From assembly GCA_026397175.1 (NCBI GenBank), contig JAPLVK010000022.1:5689-69688 (forward strand): a stretch of DNA of 64,000 nucleotides. Reading direction: 5' to 3'. Origin of the DNA: Candidatus Berkelbacteria bacterium (GTDB taxonomy: Bacteria; Patescibacteriota; UBA1384; DTJR01). The notes under the pieces are model-generated. The model did not search any database, was not told the origin of the DNA, and saw nothing but the letters and a program-made list of their open reading frames with translations. The position numbers and the translations under genes are program-made. Of this stretch, positions 3,703 to 61,873 are shown one piece after another; the stretch's first letter is position 1; the number at the start of each line of letters is the position of its first letter.

Positions 3703-3723
3703 AGATGATTTTAGGAAGAAAAT

Positions 3724-4734
3724 ATGCTAAGATATTTTGAAATTATGGCAAGAAGAAAAATTATTTGTATCGTGGGGCCGACGGCGTCAGGGAAAACCGG
3801 ACTCGGGGTTTATTTGGCTAAAAAAGTCGGGGGAGAGATTGTTTCTGCCGACTCGCGACAGGTTTACAAAAAACTCGATATTGGATCTGGCAAGGACTTG
3901 GAAGAATATGGTGATATTAAATATCATTTAATTGATGTTGTGAAACCAGAAGAAAAATTTACGATGTTCGATTGGCTCGAGAAAGCAAGAATAATTATCG
4001 AGGATATTTTTGATAGGGGAAAAGTGCCGATTATAGTCGGAGGAACGGGGTTATATGTAAAAGCTCTAGTACAGGGCTTTTACATAACTCAAAAAGTAAA
4101 AATAAAAAAGTATAGCCACAATTCAAAACTTAAAAATTTTTCAAGGGAAGAATTAGACGAAAGATCATTGGGACAACTGCAAGAAATTGCGAAAAAATTG
4201 GGTTTAAATACAGAAAAATTGGACTTTCAAAACCCAAGACGGCTGATAAGGGCGATTGAGAGAAAACAAGAGGGGATAAAAATCACCAAGAAAAAGCCGG
4301 ATTTTGAGGCGTTGCAAATTGGGATTTCGACGCCGCGAGAAGATCTTTATGAAAAAATTGATAGGCGGGTGGAATCAAGGTTTAAAGATGGAATGTTGGA
4401 AGAAGTAAAAAGGTTAATTGATTCGGGGGTTAGCACAAAGTGGCTGCTTCAATTAGGTTTAGAATACAGAATAATAACGGAATATCTCCTCTGTCATCCC
4501 GCACTGGATGCGGGATCTAAAAGTATAGATTCCCGCTTTCGCGAGAATGACAACAAGAGTGGCAACAAGGATGGCGAGAATGACAAATTCGAAGAGATGA
4601 AACAAGAACTGAAGTGGAAAAGCCACGGTTATGCCAGAAGGCAGTTGACATGGTTGAGAAGATTTCCGGAGATTAAATGGGTTAAAGATAAGAAGGAAGC
4701 GGAAAAAATTGCTAAGGATTTTTTTAGAAAATAA
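3724..4734 (+). CDS. miaA: tRNA dimethylallyltransferase
   Basis: P-loop IICIVGPTASGKTGLGVYLAK...IVSADSRQVYKKLDIGSGK is typical of MiaA. Confidence 0.85.
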   Translation: MLRYFEIMARRKIICIVGPTASGKTGLGVYLAKKVGGEIVSADSRQVYKKLDIGSGKDLEEYGDIKYHLIDVVKPEEKFTMFDWLEKARIIIEDIFDRGKVPIIVGGTGLYVKALVQGFYITQKVKIKKYSHNSKLKNFSREELDERSLGQLQEIAKKLGLNTEKLDFQNPRRLIRAIERKQEGIKITKKKPDFEALQIGISTPREDLYEKIDRRVESRFKDGMLEEVKRLIDSGVSTKWLLQLGLEYRIITEYLLCHPALDAGSKSIDSRFRENDNKSGNKDGENDKFEEMKQELKWKSHGYARRQLTWLRRFPEIKWVKDKKEAEKIAKDFFRK

Positions 4735-9240: not shown

Positions 9241-9339
9241 AAAAATAAGAGTAGCAAGTTTGGGGAGGGGATGCAATTTTAGAGGGACAAAAATTATTAT
9301 TTACAGAACTTACGCAACGAAGCCCAATTTTTTGTTGAT

Positions 9340-9419
9340 AACACACTAAAGTGTGGGCTACATTTCCCCTCGTAGGCCATGCTTTAGCATGATAATCAAC
9401 ACACTAAAGTGTGGACTAC
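9340..9419. promoter_or_regulatory. Two direct repeats, each containing the 14-bp palindrome CACACTAAAGTGTG, upstream of pcrA
   Basis: AACACACTAAAGTGTGG(G/A)CTAC occurs at 9340 and 9398; the palindromes are at 9342-9355 and 9400-9413, 58 bp apart and 100-180 bp upstream of the pcrA start. Confidence 0.4.
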
Positions 9420-9442
9420 GGCATTTTGCGTAAGCGCTGTTA

Positions 9443-9471
9443 TTGACTTTTTTGGGTGAAAGTGCTAATAT
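9443..9471 (+). promoter_or_regulatory. Sigma70-like promoter (TTGACT-17-TAATAT)
   Basis: ttgact + 17 nt + taatat, pointing into an ORF-free GC-rich segment. Confidence 0.45.
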
Positions 9472-9478
9472 CTGGGCA

Positions 9479-9912
9479 ATTCGAAGCGTGTTTTCGAAGG
9501 TGAGGCCGACTGGTTTGAGGTACGCTTTGGCTTGAGGATCGGTTAGGTCTGCTTTTTTTCGGCTTAACTTGAATCTCGCCTTGGCGAGTAGCCCAGTCGG
9601 GGTCAGCTTGGTTTGAAAGACCGTCTGCAGTCCCTGGTATCTAATGATCCAGCGGAGACGGTTTTGGTCGGCAGGAATAGCGGTCTGTTGAGGACTTCCT
9701 CCGGACCCCAAGTCCAACAAGCTGAAAAGTGACTGATTTTGAGTGGGCGCGCCAATCACCTTTTTGGTCATATAGACCTGGGTGGGCTCTGTCGCTTAAA
9801 GTCAGTGAGAACACGCAAGAAGCGATTCACATTTTTCTTGATTAGTTTCTTCAAAAGATGTGATCGCACCATGGGGGCGGCTCGGAAACGAGCCGCCCCT
9901 AAATCATTTTTC
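9479..9912 (+). ncRNA. Candidate structured non-coding RNA of unknown class (about 430 nt)
   Basis: Bounded by a plus-strand promoter and a GC hairpin with GAAA loop plus T-run (9874-9912). No plus-strand ORF with an RBS. Long-range complementarity (CCGACTGG...CCAGTCGG) and local hairpins (ttcgaa..ttcgaa, CTCGCC-tt-GGCGAG). GC-richer than the flanks. Confidence 0.3.
9874..9912 (+). terminator. GC-rich hairpin (GNRA loop) plus T-run
   Basis: ggggcggctcg-gaaa-cgagccgcccc followed by taaatcattttt. Confidence 0.5.
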
Positions 9913-9926
9913 AGGTTACAAATTTG

Positions 9927-9964
9927 CGCATTTTGTCCGATCGGACAAAATGCGCAAATCATAA
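9927..9964. repeat. 38-bp perfect palindrome, CGATCG-core family
   Basis: atttgcgcattttgtccgatcggacaaaatgcgcaaat. Confidence 0.6.
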
Positions 9965-10090
9965 TCTATCGACAAATATTAATCTCGCATTCGCGAAGGA
10001 TTCTTCCCCCGAACTAGATCCGAGATCAATGACTAAAATTGGAGTATGCAAAGATTAAACCCTTACAAAGAGAATCATTTTAATAATTAG

Positions 10091-10146
10091 ATCAATATCA
10101 TAAATATTGATATATTGCACTTTTAGTACGATCGTACTAAAAGTGC
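10091..10146. repeat. Two adjacent palindromes upstream of the 10298 gene, including a 30-bp CGATCG-core palindrome
   Basis: atcaatat-cataa-atattgat (10091-10111) and gcacttttagtacgatcgtactaaaagtgc (10117-10146). Confidence 0.6.
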
Positions 10147-10297
10147 ATAAGATCTAGGAGAGGATACATTAAAAAATGTTAATTTACGGAAATTTTAAAA
10201 TTTGATTTGAAACAAAAATTCTGTAGCTTGAAGTTGAAATTAAGAAGAGTAAGATATTAGATAATTAAGCAATCAACAAAGTCCTTTAGGAGGGATC

Positions 10298-12034
10298 ATG
10301 GATTTGGATAAAAAACATCACGATGCGCCGAGAGTTGTGAATATTGGAATTTGGTCTATGGCCGTTGTAGGGGCACTCGCGTTTGCAATTTCGTTGGGCG
10401 GATGGTTTTATTCGTCTGTTGAATCGCCGATTTCGGCAAGTACCTCGGCCGGGTCGGGCACATGTCCGTCTGATAAACAAATTGCGATTAATAACTATCC
10501 CGGGACCAGCAAAGAATACCATGCCCTTTTGAGCAATTCGCGCGATCAAAATTGGCGATGCTCGCTTGTCTGTAATACTTCCGGAAAATCACCCGATGAG
10601 TTTATCAAAGGGTTAACAATTGGTGGAAAACCAGTAATTATTTATAGCACAGGCGATGAATTTAAAAGTAAGGGCAGTAACATCGGTAAGGATGATTTTG
10701 ACCGAGTCGTTGTTAGCGGCGCAACAAAAGGAAAATGTGAAGGCGCGAAAACCGGATCGACAAACGGCGCAAGCATTGACTATGTAGACATAAAATATAA
10801 CGACAAAGCAGTTGAACCACTTTCGAAGAATGAAACAATAAAGGAACTTTCGCAGGCAGCCAACGCCGACACAAGCAGCAATGAGCTACCAGCACCGATT
10901 GATAATCCAGGATCATCGCCAAGCGGGACAGACAGCACGACGACACCTGGACAAAAAGATGGTGTTCCAAAAATAAAGATTGTGAAACCAGGAACGCTAG
11001 ATCCCGATGCTCCGTCGTATACAATCCAAATTTCTGGAATTGAAAAATATTCCGACAGTACAAGAAAACCCGGAGATATTAGTATAACTGCAGCATTAAG
11101 CGACACTGACAGTAAGAGTGCAAAATTTCGTAATTCTCCAATTTGCGCTAGTGCTATGACACAAGGACCGGATGGTCATTATAATATGGAGTTTACGGTT
11201 GACGGAATATGGTATAGAGCAAATAGGAGTGCAAAGATATATTATTATGCTCTCGAAGAAACGGATGGGGCTATCCCTGAACAAAATAAAAGAAAACGAT
11301 CTTCATCGGATTCACTAAATAATCCAAGATATGTCCATTATGACGGCTCCACAATCCAAATAAAATATAACGAGGAATCCCTTTATGGTGTACAAGGTAG
11401 CGAAAATCCTGTTTTAACTTCAGCACAAGAATTGCAACAACAATGGGAATCTTTCGCAAGTGCGACAAAGTTAAATAGTTCACAGATGAATCAATGCGGG
11501 GGCTTGTCTTCGGGACCAACGCAAACAACGCAGGAAGTAGCGCAACAAACAATGCAGCAGATTACAAATCGAAATGGAACAGTTACATTTAAAATTTCCG
11601 GAAAAGTGTGGTGGAATTTTGCCGGAGGGTTAGAAAGTAAAAAAGCGGTTATTTGCGCAGCAATGTGGAATACTACTGACCCAGACGATCCTAAAAAAAG
11701 AAGTAAGATACCAAGCGAAGAATTCCAAAAGGTCAAGGCAAATACCAATGGAACATTTAGTATTGATTTGCCTGTAGCCATAAGGAATCTAAGGGGGCTA
11801 AGCATTGTTGCATTTGATCCCGGAGGAATTTATAGACCAAAATATTATTATTTCGGTCAAACTGCACTTGCTATGAAAAGCTATGTTATAAATGCAGTTG
11901 ACTTAACCACAAATAATTCTGCGTATGATGTCCCCTTCAACATAGGAAATCAGCTAGATCTTCAACAGGGTTATGGTGATTCAAAAAGGTGGCGAAACGA
12001 GTTCTATTATGCAACTGGTCACTACTGCGAATAG
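10298..12034 (+). CDS. Membrane-anchored large surface protein (hypothetical)
   Basis: 578 aa with an N-terminal transmembrane helix and a Ser/Thr/Asn-rich extracytoplasmic region. GGAGGGA RBS. No recognisable catalytic motif. Confidence 0.55.
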   Translation: MDLDKKHHDAPRVVNIGIWSMAVVGALAFAISLGGWFYSSVESPISASTSAGSGTCPSDKQIAINNYPGTSKEYHALLSNSRDQNWRCSLVCNTSGKSPDEFIKGLTIGGKPVIIYSTGDEFKSKGSNIGKDDFDRVVVSGATKGKCEGAKTGSTNGASIDYVDIKYNDKAVEPLSKNETIKELSQAANADTSSNELPAPIDNPGSSPSGTDSTTTPGQKDGVPKIKIVKPGTLDPDAPSYTIQISGIEKYSDSTRKPGDISITAALSDTDSKSAKFRNSPICASAMTQGPDGHYNMEFTVDGIWYRANRSAKIYYYALEETDGAIPEQNKRKRSSSDSLNNPRYVHYDGSTIQIKYNEESLYGVQGSENPVLTSAQELQQQWESFASATKLNSSQMNQCGGLSSGPTQTTQEVAQQTMQQITNRNGTVTFKISGKVWWNFAGGLESKKAVICAAMWNTTDPDDPKKRSKIPSEEFQKVKANTNGTFSIDLPVAIRNLRGLSIVAFDPGGIYRPKYYYFGQTALAMKSYVINAVDLTTNNSAYDVPFNIGNQLDLQQGYGDSKRWRNEFYYATGHYCE

Positions 12035-13871: not shown

Positions 13872-13948
<77 letters not shown>

Positions 13949-14079
13949 TCATATTTAGAAGAATAGCAAATTTCCTCGAATTAGTCAATTTACAGATTAA
14001 CAAATTTTGCGAAATAGTAAAGAGCTCTTTACATTTATGGTTTTTTTTATAAAATAGAAATGTGTTAAAAGTATAAAGT

Positions 14080-14156
14080 GACAGTGTAGCTCAGATGGTT
14101 AGAGCGAGGGAATCATAACCCCTAGGTCGCTGGTTCGATTCCAGCCACTGTCACCA
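14080..14156 (+). tRNA. tRNA(CAU): elongator Met or Ile2 (lysidine) type
   Basis: GACAGTG-TA-GCTC...anticodon loop AUCAUAA...T-arm GGUCGCUGGUUCGAUUCCAGC (resembles ileX-type T-arm), with encoded CCA. Confidence 0.75.
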
Positions 14157-14232: not shown

Positions 14233-14643
14233 TTATAAAGTGTCGAGGGCGTGGTTGACGAGAGAGTCCGCTTCTTTGTTATCCTCTCGTCTGATATGAG
14301 AAAAATTTATCGTCCCGCCGTGTTCGGATAACTTCTGCTTAATATCTAAATAAATAACTTTTAAATTTTGATCCTTCACCTTGTATTGGCCATTTAGCTG
14401 GCGGCAAACTAATTCGGAATCCAAAAGAAAATCAATATTGGCTTCTTTTTCGTTCTCCAAAACCCACTCGAGGGCTTTTTCTATGGCCGTGTATTCTGCA
14501 ACATTATTAGTTTCGACTCCGATACACTCGCTTATTTTGTGGATAATCTTACCCGATTCAAAATCAACAATTACAATCCCGATTGCGCAAGGACCGGGAT
14601 TTCCTCTTGATCCCCCGTCTGTAAAAATTTTTAACTTCTTCAT
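14233..14643 (-). CDS. rnhA: Ribonuclease HI
   Basis: FTDGGSRGNPGPCAIGIV...NNVAEYTAIEKAL...REDNKEADSL catalytic DEDD signature. Confidence 0.85.
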   Translation of the reverse strand: MKKLKIFTDGGSRGNPGPCAIGIVIVDFESGKIIHKISECIGVETNNVAEYTAIEKALEWVLENEKEANIDFLLDSELVCRQLNGQYKVKDQNLKVIYLDIKQKLSEHGGTINFSHIRREDNKEADSLVNHALDTL

Positions 14644-35380: not shown

Positions 35381-35455
35381 TGGTCGGCCCGGCAGGGTTC
35401 GAACCTGCGACATTTCGCTTATAAGACGAATGCTCTACCCCTGAGCTACGGGCCG
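35381..35455 (-). tRNA. tRNA-Ile(UAU)
   Basis: The reverse complement gives CGGCCCG-UA-GCUC-AGGGGUA-GAGC-A-UUCGU-CUUAUAA-GCGAA-AUGUC-GCAGG-UUCGAAC-CCUGC-CGGGCCG-A-CCA. The 7-bp acceptor is fully paired; the anticodon is UAU. Confidence 0.7.
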
Positions 35456-44456: not shown

Positions 44457-44819
44457 TTACATCCCCTTGTATTCCCATTTGATACTATCTGACGATTTTG
44501 TCTGATATTTATCGGCGGCAACACTAGGTTGAGCACCGTTAACCGAATACAACCAGAAGTCCTTATCGGTTGACTTCAGGTCGTCTATGCTATTTACCAT
44601 AACTCCAAGAGAACTATCTTGGGACTCAACCTGATGATTTGCTTTGAGAATATCGAAGGCCGTTTTCCCCTCTTCGCCTTGATACTCAATCGTTTTTTGC
44701 TCTATAGCAACAGCCGTTGGGTTTGTTGCGGCCTTTTTGTTGAAAGCGCAACCCGTTAATAACCCACCAAAAACAAGAACTGATACAAAGACAATTAATA
44801 CATTTTTCTTAAAATTCAT
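44457..44819 (-). CDS. Lipoprotein with DUF4430-like domain
   Basis: Lipobox LLTGC, then ...FWLYSVNGAQPSVAADKYQTKSSDSIKWEY. Confidence 0.5.
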   Translation of the reverse strand: MNFKKNVLIVFVSVLVFGGLLTGCAFNKKAATNPTAVAIEQKTIEYQGEEGKTAFDILKANHQVESQDSSLGVMVNSIDDLKSTDKDFWLYSVNGAQPSVAADKYQTKSSDSIKWEYKGM

Positions 44820-45144
44820 GATACTCCTCTGCTAATTATATTTTACCGAGATCTTTTCCGACAAGACAAATTTAATTTTTATGAGTAAGGCATTTTTCCT
44901 CCTCGGGATAAAGAACATGTTGGTTTTCCGACTTTACGGTAGCGGGACTGTGACGGTATTAAACCGCGCTTGCCCAAACATGTTGATTAGTTTGTATTTA
45001 CTACTTAAACAACAATAATCATAATTGTCAAACAGAGATCCTAACTCAAAGTTATACAGATTACAAAATGTTACATAACTTTTAATTAACTTACTTAACT
45101 TTGTTCGGGTACCTAATAAAACTTATATATTTTTGTTCTCTCAC

Positions 45145-45190: not shown

Positions 45191-45252
45191 TTGTAAATTA
45201 AAAAATATAAAGTTATATAGGACTTTGCTTTTTTATAAAATCCGCTCAAAAT

Positions 45253-45292
45253 AAAATCTGCCCCGCTTACGCAAGGCAGATTTTATTTTTTT
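45253..45292 (-). terminator. Hairpin terminator downstream of the RRM gene (also reads as a plus-strand terminator)
   Basis: aaaatctgcc-ccgcttacgcaa-ggcagatttt plus a T-run. Confidence 0.55.
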
Positions 45293-45304
45293 GTCTAGTT
45301 TGGC

Positions 45305-45613
45305 TTAGCGATACGATCTATCGAAGTTACCGCCGCGGTCAGACCTTTTTTCTTGAGGTCTAGCTACGCTGACCGTCAGGGGTCTACCTTCAATTTCCTT
45401 ACCATTCATCGCCTCAATGGCCTTGTTGGCCATTTCTTCGCTTTCAACAGTGACAAAACCAAATCCCTTTGATCTGCCTGTGTTGAATTTGTCGGTGATG
45501 ACTTTCGCCTCGACAACAGTTACGCCTTCAACCTCTTTGAAGAGGGCTTCGAGCGCAGCATCGTCGACCGTGTAAGGAAGATTGCCCACATAGAGCTTAT
45601 TTTTATCTTCCAT
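45305..45613 (-). CDS. RRM-type RNA-binding protein
   Basis: RNP-2 LYVGNL and RNP-1 KGFGFVTV; C-terminal RGG-like tail. Confidence 0.8.
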   Translation of the reverse strand: MEDKNKLYVGNLPYTVDDAALEALFKEVEGVTVVEAKVITDKFNTGRSKGFGFVTVESEEMANKAIEAMNGKEIEGRPLTVSVARPQEKRSDRGGNFDRSYR

Positions 45614-45755
45614 CTATCTAATTCCTTAAACACATTAACTTTCGACCTAATTTCAATTTTTTACAATCGAGTTCATAAATTCAAAACTTATCAACACGAT
45701 TAAATAATTGTACCCCAAATCACTAAAAATGTCAATATCAACAAAAAATCTGGGC

Positions 45756-54075: not shown

Positions 54076-54189
54076 AAATTAATATTTACCTCACCTTAAG
54101 CTTCCCATAAATCAAGAAAAAAATAAAGTCCAAGCATCGGTTCTAATTTTGCAACTTTAAAAATTCACTCATTTTCCCTTTCTCCCCTG

Positions 54190-54217
54190 CACTTTTGAGA
54201 CGATCGTCTCAAAAGTG
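54190..54217. repeat. 28-bp perfect palindrome (CGATCG-core family), left bracket of the PaaX-like gene
   Basis: cacttttgagacgatcgtctcaaaagtg. Confidence 0.7.
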
Positions 54218-54262
54218 TATGCCTCAAACCTGTATTTACTTGCTAGTTTTTATAATATGAGA

Positions 54263-54841
54263 TTAAAGATCGAATTTATTTTTAAGATATTCTTCACAAT
54301 CAATCTTGGAAAGTTCTCCGTAATTAACAAATTTTTCAACTTCAAAGACCGAACTAATAAAAGATATCTCATCCTCGCACTTATAGGGGCAAACCCAAAC
54401 ACTTTTTTGCAATTTGACAAAACCGATTTCTATCAATTTACTTCTCAAAATATTTCTAGCAAATCGGAGTTTTTCGGGAATATCAAAAAATACTATTCTC
54501 CATTTGCCATCCCATTTATGTTTATTAATCGAAATAGCATCAATGTCATAATCCACTAACCTTACCTTACCTTTTTGTGTAATTTTAATAATTGTTTTGC
54601 CTTTTCGATAGGTAATCTGAACAAATCGGTCCTTAATTATTTTCTCGAGTGATTTATCAACTGCTTCATCGCCGTGTTTCTTGCGCAGCTTGTTCAGTTT
54701 GGGAATAAATTTTGAAAGCCCATAAGGAGAAGTCAAGGCAACACCGATTACCAAACCAATCAGCACCACTTCCAATACCAATTTTGCTACCTCAACGAAA
54801 ACTTCTTTTTCATATTTGGTAAGCCGAACCTTTGAACTCAT
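54263..54841 (-). CDS. PaaX-C/Cas2-fold domain protein with N-terminal transmembrane helix
   Basis: WDGKWRIVFFDIPEKLRFARNILRSKLIEIGFVKLQKSVWVCPY resembles the PaaX C-terminal (Cas2/VapD-like) domain. ATG at Met-13 of the ORF-track ORF; the track's GTG start would sit inside the palindrome. Confidence 0.5.
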   Translation of the reverse strand: MSSKVRLTKYEKEVFVEVAKLVLEVVLIGLVIGVALTSPYGLSKFIPKLNKLRKKHGDEAVDKSLEKIIKDRFVQITYRKGKTIIKITQKGKVRLVDYDIDAISINKHKWDGKWRIVFFDIPEKLRFARNILRSKLIEIGFVKLQKSVWVCPYKCEDEISFISSVFEVEKFVNYGELSKIDCEEYLKNKFDL

Positions 54842-54872
54842 ATACTTAACATTATCACTAATTTGAATCCTC

Positions 54873-54906
54873 TGCACTTTTGAGACGATCGTCTCAAAAG
54901 TGCAGG
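54873..54906. repeat. 34-bp perfect palindrome (extends to about 40 bp imperfect), right bracket of the PaaX-like gene
   Basis: ctgcacttttgagacgatcgtctcaaaagtgcag. Confidence 0.7.
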
Positions 54907-61227: not shown

Positions 61228-61303
61228 TGGCACGCCGGCGGGGACTTGAACCCCGAACCTTCGGTTTTGGAGACCGCTACTCTGCCAATTGAGCTACCGG
61301 CGT
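61228..61303 (-). tRNA. tRNA-Trp(CCA), copy 1
   Basis: ACGCCGG-UA-GCUC-AAUUGGCA-GAGU-A-GCGGU-CUCCAAA-ACCGA-AGGUU-CGGGG-UUCAAGU-CCCCG-CCGGCGU-G-CCA; discriminator G73. Confidence 0.8.
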
Positions 61304-61786: not shown

Positions 61787-61862
61787 TTGGCACGCCGGCG
61801 GGGACTTGAACCCCGAACCTTCGGTTTTGGAGACCGCTACTCTGCCAATTGAGCTACCGGCG
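61787..61862 (-). tRNA. tRNA-Trp(CCA), copy 2
   Basis: Identical to copy 1 except for acceptor position 1 (G1·U72 rather than A1-U72). Confidence 0.8.
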
Positions 61863-61873
61863 CGCAATTCTAC

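Follow-up and report, generated by a model that had tools for sequence, protein, structure and literature searches.

A candidate promoter-to-terminator unit for a heavily base-paired non-coding RNA of about 430 nucleotides in a Berkelbacteria genome

Introduction

Bacteria of the Candidate Phyla Radiation (CPR) have tiny genomes, and to our knowledge hardly anything has been learned about non-coding RNAs in them, apart from those that are universal. Among the universal stable RNAs, RNase P RNA is recognised by its P4 helix and by the conserved GGAAAGUCC and ACAGAA..CGGCUUA strands, transfer-messenger RNA (tmRNA) by a tRNA-like domain formed from its 5' and 3' ends together with a tag reading frame, and signal recognition particle (SRP) RNA by helix 8, with its conserved GNAR tetraloop and its symmetric and asymmetric loops. 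Here we describe a segment of about 430 nucleotides (nt) in a 64,000-nt stretch of the genome of a Candidatus Berkelbacteria bacterium, a member of the CPR with a G+C content of 41% (the whole stretch is referred to as the window). The segment, at positions 9478-9912 of the plus strand, is situated in the divergent spacer of 1,021 base pairs (bp) between pcrA and a gene for a membrane protein of 578 amino acids (aa; 10298-12034, +). We consider the chances about even that it is a stand-alone unit for a heavily base-paired non-coding RNA, specific to this Berkelbacteria lineage and acquired with foreign DNA. We favour this reading because a rare strong promoter is followed, about 400 nt downstream and in the same orientation, by the strongest hairpin of the window and a T-run, and because the segment in between has no credible open reading frame (ORF) and a strand-asymmetric fold.

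With RNase P RNA, tmRNA, SRP RNA and 6S RNA, the unit shares the length class of 350-430 nt, a promoter of the type found before tRNA-Met, a closing helix between the 5' and 3' ends, a multi-helix core and the lack of an ORF. Unlike the universal stable RNAs, it matches no covariance model and is missing from the ten related genomes that were compared, and it is therefore not a housekeeping RNA. It also resembles the IscB omega RNA (HEARO), GOLLD, ROOL and OLE in being several hundred nt long and richly structured, in having a G+C content above that of its host and in its apparent location in acquired DNA. However, those RNAs were defined by conservation and covariation over many genomes, whereas the unit is known from a single strain, has no Rfam match and has no IscB, TnpB, phage or other partner gene adjacent to it. 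Lastly, the spacer is packed with hairpins on both strands and contains a recurring palindrome family, as do clusters of repetitive extragenic palindromes (REP), bacterial interspersed mosaic elements (BIME) or miniature inverted-repeat transposable elements (MITE). In contrast to such clusters, the unit is single-copy and consists of mutually unrelated hairpins, its plus strand gives the better fold, a promoter and a terminator of its own accompany it, and it lacks significant terminal inverted repeats.

Promoter and terminator of the unit

The elements of the predicted unit are as follows; z-values compare folding energies with those of dinucleotide shuffles, and the hairpins are numbered from the 5' end.

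9443-9471 (+): sigma-70-type promoter, TTGACT (9443-9448), 17-nt spacer, TAATAT (9466-9471), with a TG extended −10
9478-9912 (+): predicted non-coding transcript of about 431-435 nt, without an Rfam match
9486-9816 (+): closed core domain of 331 nt, single-sequence prediction; a 10-bp helix of GCGUGUUUUC (9486-9495) with GAGAACACGC (9807-9816) encloses four hairpins
9497-9609 (+): H1, long interrupted hairpin that includes the CCGACUGG/CCAGUCGG helix; z = −2.1
9617-9665 (+): H2 hairpin; z = −4.4
9668-9725 (+): H3 hairpin with a GAGG-ACUU-CCUC tip; z = −1.6, not significant
9732-9806 (+): H4 hairpin, basal helix of 15 bp; z = −5.1 (plus strand) versus −2.4 (minus strand)
9822-9867 (+): H5 hairpin, A+U-rich, directly 5' of the terminator; z = −3.9
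9872-9911 (+): intrinsic-terminator-like hairpin, 13 pairs over 9872-9901 of which 10 are G-C, GAAA loop, then AAAUCAUUUUU

A preliminary description of this region, made from the DNA letters without database searches, had proposed a near-consensus TTGACT-17-TAATAT promoter. This promoter is present as described and additionally carries a TG extended −10, and the predicted transcription start is at about position 9478. Matches at 9 of the 12 promoter positions are by themselves not above chance, with two observed in the region versus 2.6 expected in shuffles, and 177 in the window as a whole. The combination of TTGAC., a spacer of 16 or 17 nt and a TG-extended −10 is found at only four sites when both strands of the 64 kb are counted. 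The three further sites are located before tRNA-Met (TTGACT-17-TATTCT at 13988, minus strand) and before two genes, and this class therefore appears to be a promoter type that the organism uses, stable RNA included.

At the other end of the unit, an 11-bp GC hairpin with a GAAA tetraloop and a T-run had been noted, and both are found where they had been placed, the T-run being displaced from the stem. The hairpin, with its perfect G+C stem of 11 bp (9874-9899), has a folding energy of −28.8 kcal/mol (z = −7.4) and is the strongest among only five G+C-rich perfect hairpins in the window. In the proposed sequence of events, RNA polymerase would initiate near 9478, and the transcript would fold into a four-hairpin core closed by the 10-bp 5'-3' helix (9486-9816), followed by H5. 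It would then be released at the terminator, at about 9908-9912, and the terminator hairpin would also protect its 3' end.

Predicted fold of the transcript

The predicted transcript (9478-9912, +) folds with −185.3 kcal/mol (z = −8.0), as compared to −141.1 kcal/mol (z = −4.9) for its complement. Its minimum-energy fold contains 148 base pairs with a mean pair probability of 0.86, such that about 68% of the bases are paired. As a control we folded 147 non-overlapping 435-nt segments per strand, with mean z-values of −0.67 (plus strand, sd 1.6) and −0.79 (minus strand, sd 1.9). The scan segment that overlaps the unit is the most extreme of all on both strands (−10.6 and −10.3), and this same segment holds a 38-bp palindrome that is described below. 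Folding had been suggested beforehand as a check on the region, and the plus strand indeed lies above background in a strand-asymmetric manner. For the core domain alone, the plus strand has a z-value of −4.1 and the minus strand one of −2.4.

The long-range complementarity between CCGACTGG and CCAGTCGG that had been pointed out in the preliminary description is present and is used in the minimum-energy fold. As evidence for structure it has to be set against the fact that helices of 8-10 bp are expected by chance, exact 8-mer pairs occurring at an estimated rate of about one per 435 nt. Since the single helices are of chance length, it is the total energy and the asymmetry between the strands that carry the structure argument, and the indication that the predicted core fold is above background is suggestive rather than decisive. 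With some two thirds of its bases in pairs and without any evident long single-stranded seed, the RNA would be likelier to function in folded form, by binding proteins or in a structural role, than as a base-pairing small RNA. Judged by the predicted fold, a protein-binding or structural role would thus be more plausible than seed-pairing regulation.

Comparison with known RNA classes

Rfam 15 returned nothing for the region when the whole window was searched at gathering thresholds. At E ≤ 10, searches of 1.1 kb and of the exact unit on both strands gave only chance hairpin matches. This comparison on both strands had been proposed at the outset and yielded no family match. Since Rfam 15 is empty on both strands, the unit is not RNase P RNA, tmRNA, SRP RNA, 6S RNA or a riboswitch. 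The earlier exclusion of the first three by eye is thus upheld by Rfam 15 and ARAGORN.

For RNase P RNA, the only line reported (RNaseP-T, 17.6 bits versus a gathering score of 60) corresponds to the terminator hairpin alone. Of its motifs, inspection by eye revealed only a 7-nt CGGCUUA (plus strand) and GGAGGAAGUCC (opposite strand), and this candidate was rejected. Conserved P4, CR-I and CR-V sequences and a tRNA-like domain were likewise not found by inspection. We also rejected tmRNA, as ARAGORN detected none in the window and Rfam gave no tmRNA match. A plus-strand frame at 9506-9535 ends in ...RPTGLRYALA followed by a stop, which is reminiscent of the endings of tmRNA tags (YALAA). We regard this as a coincidence, because the frame is located about 30-57 nt from the 5' end and is accompanied by neither a T-arm nor an acceptor stem. 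A weak resemblance of the reverse strand to SRP RNA, in the complement of the H3 tip, had been mentioned before. It found no support, as there was no SRP RNA match on either strand at E ≤ 10, and the minus-strand GGUCCGGAGGAAG folds instead as a GAGG-AAGU-CCUC hairpin; SRP RNA was accordingly rejected.

Several other classes were considered and set aside. A riboswitch, T-box or ribosomal leader was rejected on the basis that Rfam contains no matching cis-regulatory family, that the terminator is 385 nt away from the downstream ORF, which has an apparent promoter of its own, and that the relatives have no such leader. An IscB/TnpB omega RNA (HEARO) was rejected because there is no Rfam match, the neighbours are pcrA and the membrane-protein gene, and no iscB, isrB or tnpB is evident within the flanking 5 kb. 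The template of a diversity-generating retroelement was rejected because a blastn comparison of 9277-10297 with the window (word size 7) detected no second copy in the 578-aa gene or elsewhere. Domain scans covered a few of the flanking genes: they gave no Pfam match for the 578-aa protein, identified the upstream helicase as UvrD/PcrA, and found RVT_3 nearby solely in the conserved gene for RNase H (14233-14643). A MITE or other non-autonomous element was dismissed because the boundary repeat is at chance level, no target-site duplication was seen by eye, and the segment is single-copy in the 64 kb and absent from the collections searched. A CsrB-like sponge was rejected by eye, with six GGA motifs observed versus about eight expected. 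A comparison of the transcript with 54 gene starts by RNAduplex gave unrealistic duplexes with long loops, and these base-pairing targets were discarded. On sequence grounds, the unit would stand outside all described families, as a new and unclassified candidate among bacterial non-coding RNA genes.

Coding capacity of the two strands

On the plus strand, the longest ATG-started ORF within the unit has 15 codons, while TTG- or GTG-started ORFs reach 38-39 codons. A frame of 48 codons starts with the ATG at 9871 and extends across the terminator. The only ORF with a site resembling a Shine-Dalgarno (SD) sequence is a 22-codon TTG ORF at 9664-9732, with GGAG 6 nt upstream. The statement in the preliminary description that the plus strand lacks an ORF with a ribosome-binding site is therefore borne out to the extent that no ORF is credible, even though this 22-codon frame has an SD-like site. 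The segment had also been called GC-richer than its surroundings. With a G+C content of 0.50 this holds relative to its flanks and to the window (0.41), but the segment is no outlier since real genes range from 0.32 to 0.54.

The minus strand carries the following annotated frame.

9358-9771 (−): 137-aa ORF, annotated as the hypothetical protein NTZ65_04260; judged spurious

This ORF and its neighbour are identical to the hypothetical proteins NTZ65_04260 and NTZ65_04265, which are encoded on a 126-kb contig of a Candidatus Berkelbacteria metagenome-assembled genome. The only match to the 137-aa protein is the protein itself, both in a word-indexed search of 5.8 billion proteins and in a full phmmer search of 1.84 billion representatives. 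No relative of the ORF came to light in tblastn-confirmed scans of GTDB genomes, JGI metagenomes and IMG/VR, and tblastn against plasmids was also empty. A protein homology with synteny, which had been named beforehand as the finding that would speak against a non-coding RNA, was thus looked for without success. As had been noted from the translation, the protein has no recognisable domain, since it matches nothing in Pfam, PHROGs or the PDB.

Its codon score (−0.088) is close to the mean of shadow ORFs (−0.10), as compared to a mean of +0.12 and a 5th percentile of −0.058 for windows of real genes. The GC skew of its coding strand (−0.13) is below the value of every one of the 54 genes in the window, its content of Asp plus Glu is 4.3% versus 11.7% in real genes, and its single-sequence AlphaFold2 model has a predicted local distance difference test score (pLDDT) of 36.5. 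The last 40 codons (9358-9477) are situated upstream of the predicted start site of the RNA, where the frame crosses the plus-strand promoter and the hairpin repeats described below. No promoter matching at least 8 of 12 positions is present in the 190 nt upstream of the ORF. On this evidence the antisense ORF was judged to be spurious.

As an alternative to a structured RNA, the preliminary description had offered a degraded foreign gene. Translations of 9300-10000 in all six frames matched no Pfam or NCBIfam family and were also negative against PHROGs, which leaves the 'degraded gene' part without homology. The 'foreign' part finds support in the location of the segment in about 0.9 kb of lineage-specific DNA, as outlined in the following section.

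Genomic context and searches for homologues

Relatives of the locus were traced through PcrA homologues with 64-70% identity to the contigs that encode them. The loci of eleven PcrA relatives and of one homologue of the membrane protein were compared, and the segment is missing from every one. Ten distinct related genomes are represented (L001/L005, L003, L007 and L016-L022). In the ten relatives the gene order is conserved, with RNase H, FtsH, the divergent membrane-protein gene, PcrA, a G5-domain protein and KsgA. The spacer between pcrA and the membrane-protein gene measures 57-156 bp in nine of them and 452 bp in L016, where it contains tandem repeats and a palindrome. Compared with these short spacers, the 1,021 bp found here place the unit within about 0.9 kb of lineage-specific DNA. 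Neither blastn nor nhmmer detected similarity between this extra DNA and the loci of the relatives.

9306-10224 (approximate, with inferred boundaries): lineage-specific extra DNA of about 0.9 kb, in which the RNA unit and the palindromes are located

Promoter matches at 8 of 12 positions are present at both edges of the spacer, namely at 9276-9305 (−) and at 10228-10255 (+; TTGAAG-16-TAAGAT, about 42 nt before the ATG of the membrane-protein gene). They are likely to be the surviving ancestral promoters of the pcrA/membrane-protein pair. A 10-bp inverted repeat at the presumed boundaries (9302-9311 and 10216-10225) is not above chance (p ~0.29).

The homology search that had been proposed for the segment gave no homologue in the relatives or in any collection searched. 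There was no blastn match to the segment in phages and plasmids, and three exact 18-mers yielded two chance matches in IMG/VR that did not extend. Peptide seeds from the antisense frame detected nothing in GTDB genomes, IMG/VR or JGI metagenomes, and pseudo-peptide seeds from the plus frames detected nothing in JGI metagenomes or IMG/VR, these seed scans being of the exact or ungapped type. A scan of GTDB genomes seeded with the neighbouring PcrA helicase returned no locus. We found no reports in the literature on non-coding RNAs in CPR bacteria or Berkelbacteria.

Weighing of the possible explanations

What stands of the structured RNA of no assigned class in the preliminary description is a promoter-to-terminator unit without coding capacity on its own strand, with an asymmetric fold and outside the known classes; as a functional structured RNA it is a candidate only. 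Several observations weigh against such a function. The unit is absent from the syntenic site in all ten related genomes and has no homologue in any collection searched, so that neither conservation nor covariation can be invoked. Ten Logan contigs that were read carry the ORF; the six same-strain contigs that were compared, from six samples, match the window with 100% identity and contribute no variation. The T-run (9907-9911) starts about 7 nt past the perfect G+C stem, or 5 nt past the stem of 13 pairs, a spacing that is less than optimal in an intrinsic terminator. The core alone is only moderately unusual, as its z-value of −4.1 is roughly in the top 2-3% of the scan segments and about 2% of ordinary segments match or beat it. 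Much of the overall z-value stems from the 3' terminator (−7.4) and H5 (−3.9), while H4 (−5.1) and H2 (−4.4) are also among the main contributors. Finally, the whole 1-kb spacer is rich in palindromes on both strands, and some of the hairpins may be elements that act at the DNA level.

These points give weight to the view that the segment is an inert remnant of foreign or mobile DNA, that is, a decaying insertion of about 0.9 kb in which the promoter- and terminator-like sites are leftovers or products of chance and any transcript is functionless. Its absence from the same site in the ten relatives and from all collections, its G+C content of 0.50 versus 0.41 for the genome, the frequency of 9-of-12 promoter matches in an A+T-rich genome and the only moderately unusual core fold would all fit this view. 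Yet none of the six frames shows similarity to Pfam, NCBIfam or PHROG families, the terminal inverted repeats are not above chance (p ~0.29), the window contains no other copy, and a promoter of a rare class, the strongest hairpin, the right orientation and spacing and an asymmetric fold are together unlikely leftovers. We therefore consider a remnant unlikely, though it is the main competitor. The same strand and the position of the terminator 5' of the 578-aa membrane-protein gene would alternatively suit a long structured leader or attenuator of that gene, controlled by regulated read-through of the terminator. The imperfect U-tract could permit such read-through, and no plus-strand promoter with at least 9 of 12 matches lies between terminator and gene. 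This explanation is nonetheless improbable, as the 385 nt from the terminator to the start codon include two large palindromes, the 8-of-12 promoter at 10228-10255 lies about 42 nt upstream of the ATG, and the relatives possess the gene without such a leader (spacers of 57-156 bp in nine and 452 bp in L016). Moreover, no riboswitch, T-box or leader family was matched and no convincing antiterminator alternative was seen by eye.

Protein-coding explanations apply to either strand. GenBank annotates the 137-aa ORF at 9358-9771 on the minus strand as NTZ65_04260, and a true orphan gene would account for 137 uninterrupted codons that begin with ATG on the strand shared with pcrA. Only a third of the genes in the window have a recognisable SD sequence, and the lack of one is thus not decisive. 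Against this, the protein matches only itself, tblastn found no relatives in genomes, metagenomes or viruses, and the codon score is at the level of shadow ORFs, below the 5th percentile of real-gene windows. The GC skew, the content of Asp plus Glu, the pLDDT of 36.5 and the lack of an upstream promoter are all unfavourable, the C-terminal quarter is read from the plus-strand promoter and hairpin repeats, and L016 has an unrelated 143-aa ORF in the corresponding position. We hold a genuine gene on this strand to be very improbable. That the transcript encodes a small protein, namely the 22-codon TTG ORF at 9664-9732, can hardly be credited at all. This frame is the only one on the plus strand with an SD-like site, but it starts with TTG, its SD sequence and start are buried in the H2 stem, and the peptide has no hydrophobic or other recognisable character.

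For the stand-alone RNA unit that we favour, the absence from ten relatives and the location in extra DNA mean that it is an acquired accessory element and that a core function is ruled out. Whether it is also the first sighting of a new class of structured RNAs of about 430 nt is a tentative and rather doubtful proposition. Such a class would combine a closed four-hairpin core with two 3' hairpins, carried on a small acquired segment in a CPR bacterium and transcribed from a promoter of the stable-RNA type, with a function linked to the acquired element or to the host's episymbiotic lifestyle. If the unit is real, it would join the small number of lineage-specific RNA genes that have been proposed in the CPR, as an accessory gene of 430 nt with a tRNA-type promoter, and the annotation of NTZ65_04260 as a hypothetical protein would be corrected. 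Its importance is limited by its occurrence in one strain only, and hence by the lack of a core function.

Repeats and palindromes in the spacer

The spacer holds two further kinds of repeated elements.

9340-9361 and 9398-9419: 22-nt direct repeat AACACACTAAAGTGTGGrCTAC in two copies, each with a CACAC-TAAA-GTGTG hairpin
9922-9959: perfect palindrome of 38 bp centred on CGATCG, 10 nt past the T-run
10113-10150: another member of this palindrome family, 5' of the membrane-protein gene

The 22-nt repeats are located between the start of pcrA and the RNA promoter, the end of the second copy being 24 bp 5' of the −35 hexamer, and the pair may possibly represent operator sites. No third copy is present in the window, and nothing similar was seen by eye in the spacer of L007, the sole spacer of a relative that was read for this purpose.

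The palindromes of 34-38 bp with a CGATCG centre form a family with arms of the type TTGC(A/G)C..TTTT..ACGA / TCGT..AAAA..GYGCAA. Members in the window are found at 9922-9959, 10113-10150, 54186-54221 and 54872-54905, and L016, a relative whose PcrA is 67% identical, has a further copy in its syntenic spacer, at 3721-3758. Two of the palindromes flank a gene at 54263-54877 (−) whose product has a PaaX central Cas2-like domain (PF20803, E = 4.9e-22). The family could thus consist of operators of the PaaX-like regulator or of REP-like elements. Of six Logan contigs from different runs, five end at 9951-9952, inside the 38-bp palindrome, and L012 starts at 9800. The coincidence of contig ends with the palindrome indicates that this perfect 38-bp repeat appears to break short-read assemblies. 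The spacer of L016 additionally contains, at 3790-3900, a tandem array of 9-nt units resembling ATTTGACC beneath the spurious 143-aa ORF upstream of pcrA. We rejected that ORF as a syntenic homologue of the antisense ORF, because the two are unrelated and it overlies tandem repeats.

Other features of the window

The membrane-protein gene downstream of the unit (10298-12034, +) has orthologues in L001, L007 and L016-L022, and in the alignment the N-terminal anchor HH[DE]APR...W..A...PISAS is conserved in all of them. The size of the protein in related Berkelbacteria ranges from 56 to 578 aa. The 578-aa protein has no Pfam domain, and its only other match among 5.8 billion proteins is a distant one, with 34% identity over 30% of its length. 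The gene is a hypervariable surface-protein locus.

An AdoCbl-II (adenosylcobalamin) riboswitch at 44914-44984 (−), with 40.3 bits versus a gathering score of 36.5, is located upstream of genes for a DUF4430 protein (44457-44819) and a 198-aa protein without a Pfam match. It would be a cobalamin-sensing element in a CPR genome. The tRNA genes of the window include tRNA-Ile with anticodon UAU at 35381-35455 (−), two copies of tRNA-Trp(CCA) at 61228-61303 and 61788-61863 (−), which are 560 nt apart around a 155-aa ORF, and a divergent tRNA-Met pair at 13872-13948 (−) and 14080-14156 (+), between the genes for RNase H and FtsH. A strong minus-strand fold at 45241-45675 (z = −6.2) coincides with a 102-aa ORF at 45305-45613 (−) that looks RRM-like by eye (LYVGNL...KGFGFV). 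Because of this coincidence with an RRM-type ORF, 45305-45613 is probably a gene and not a further RNA candidate.

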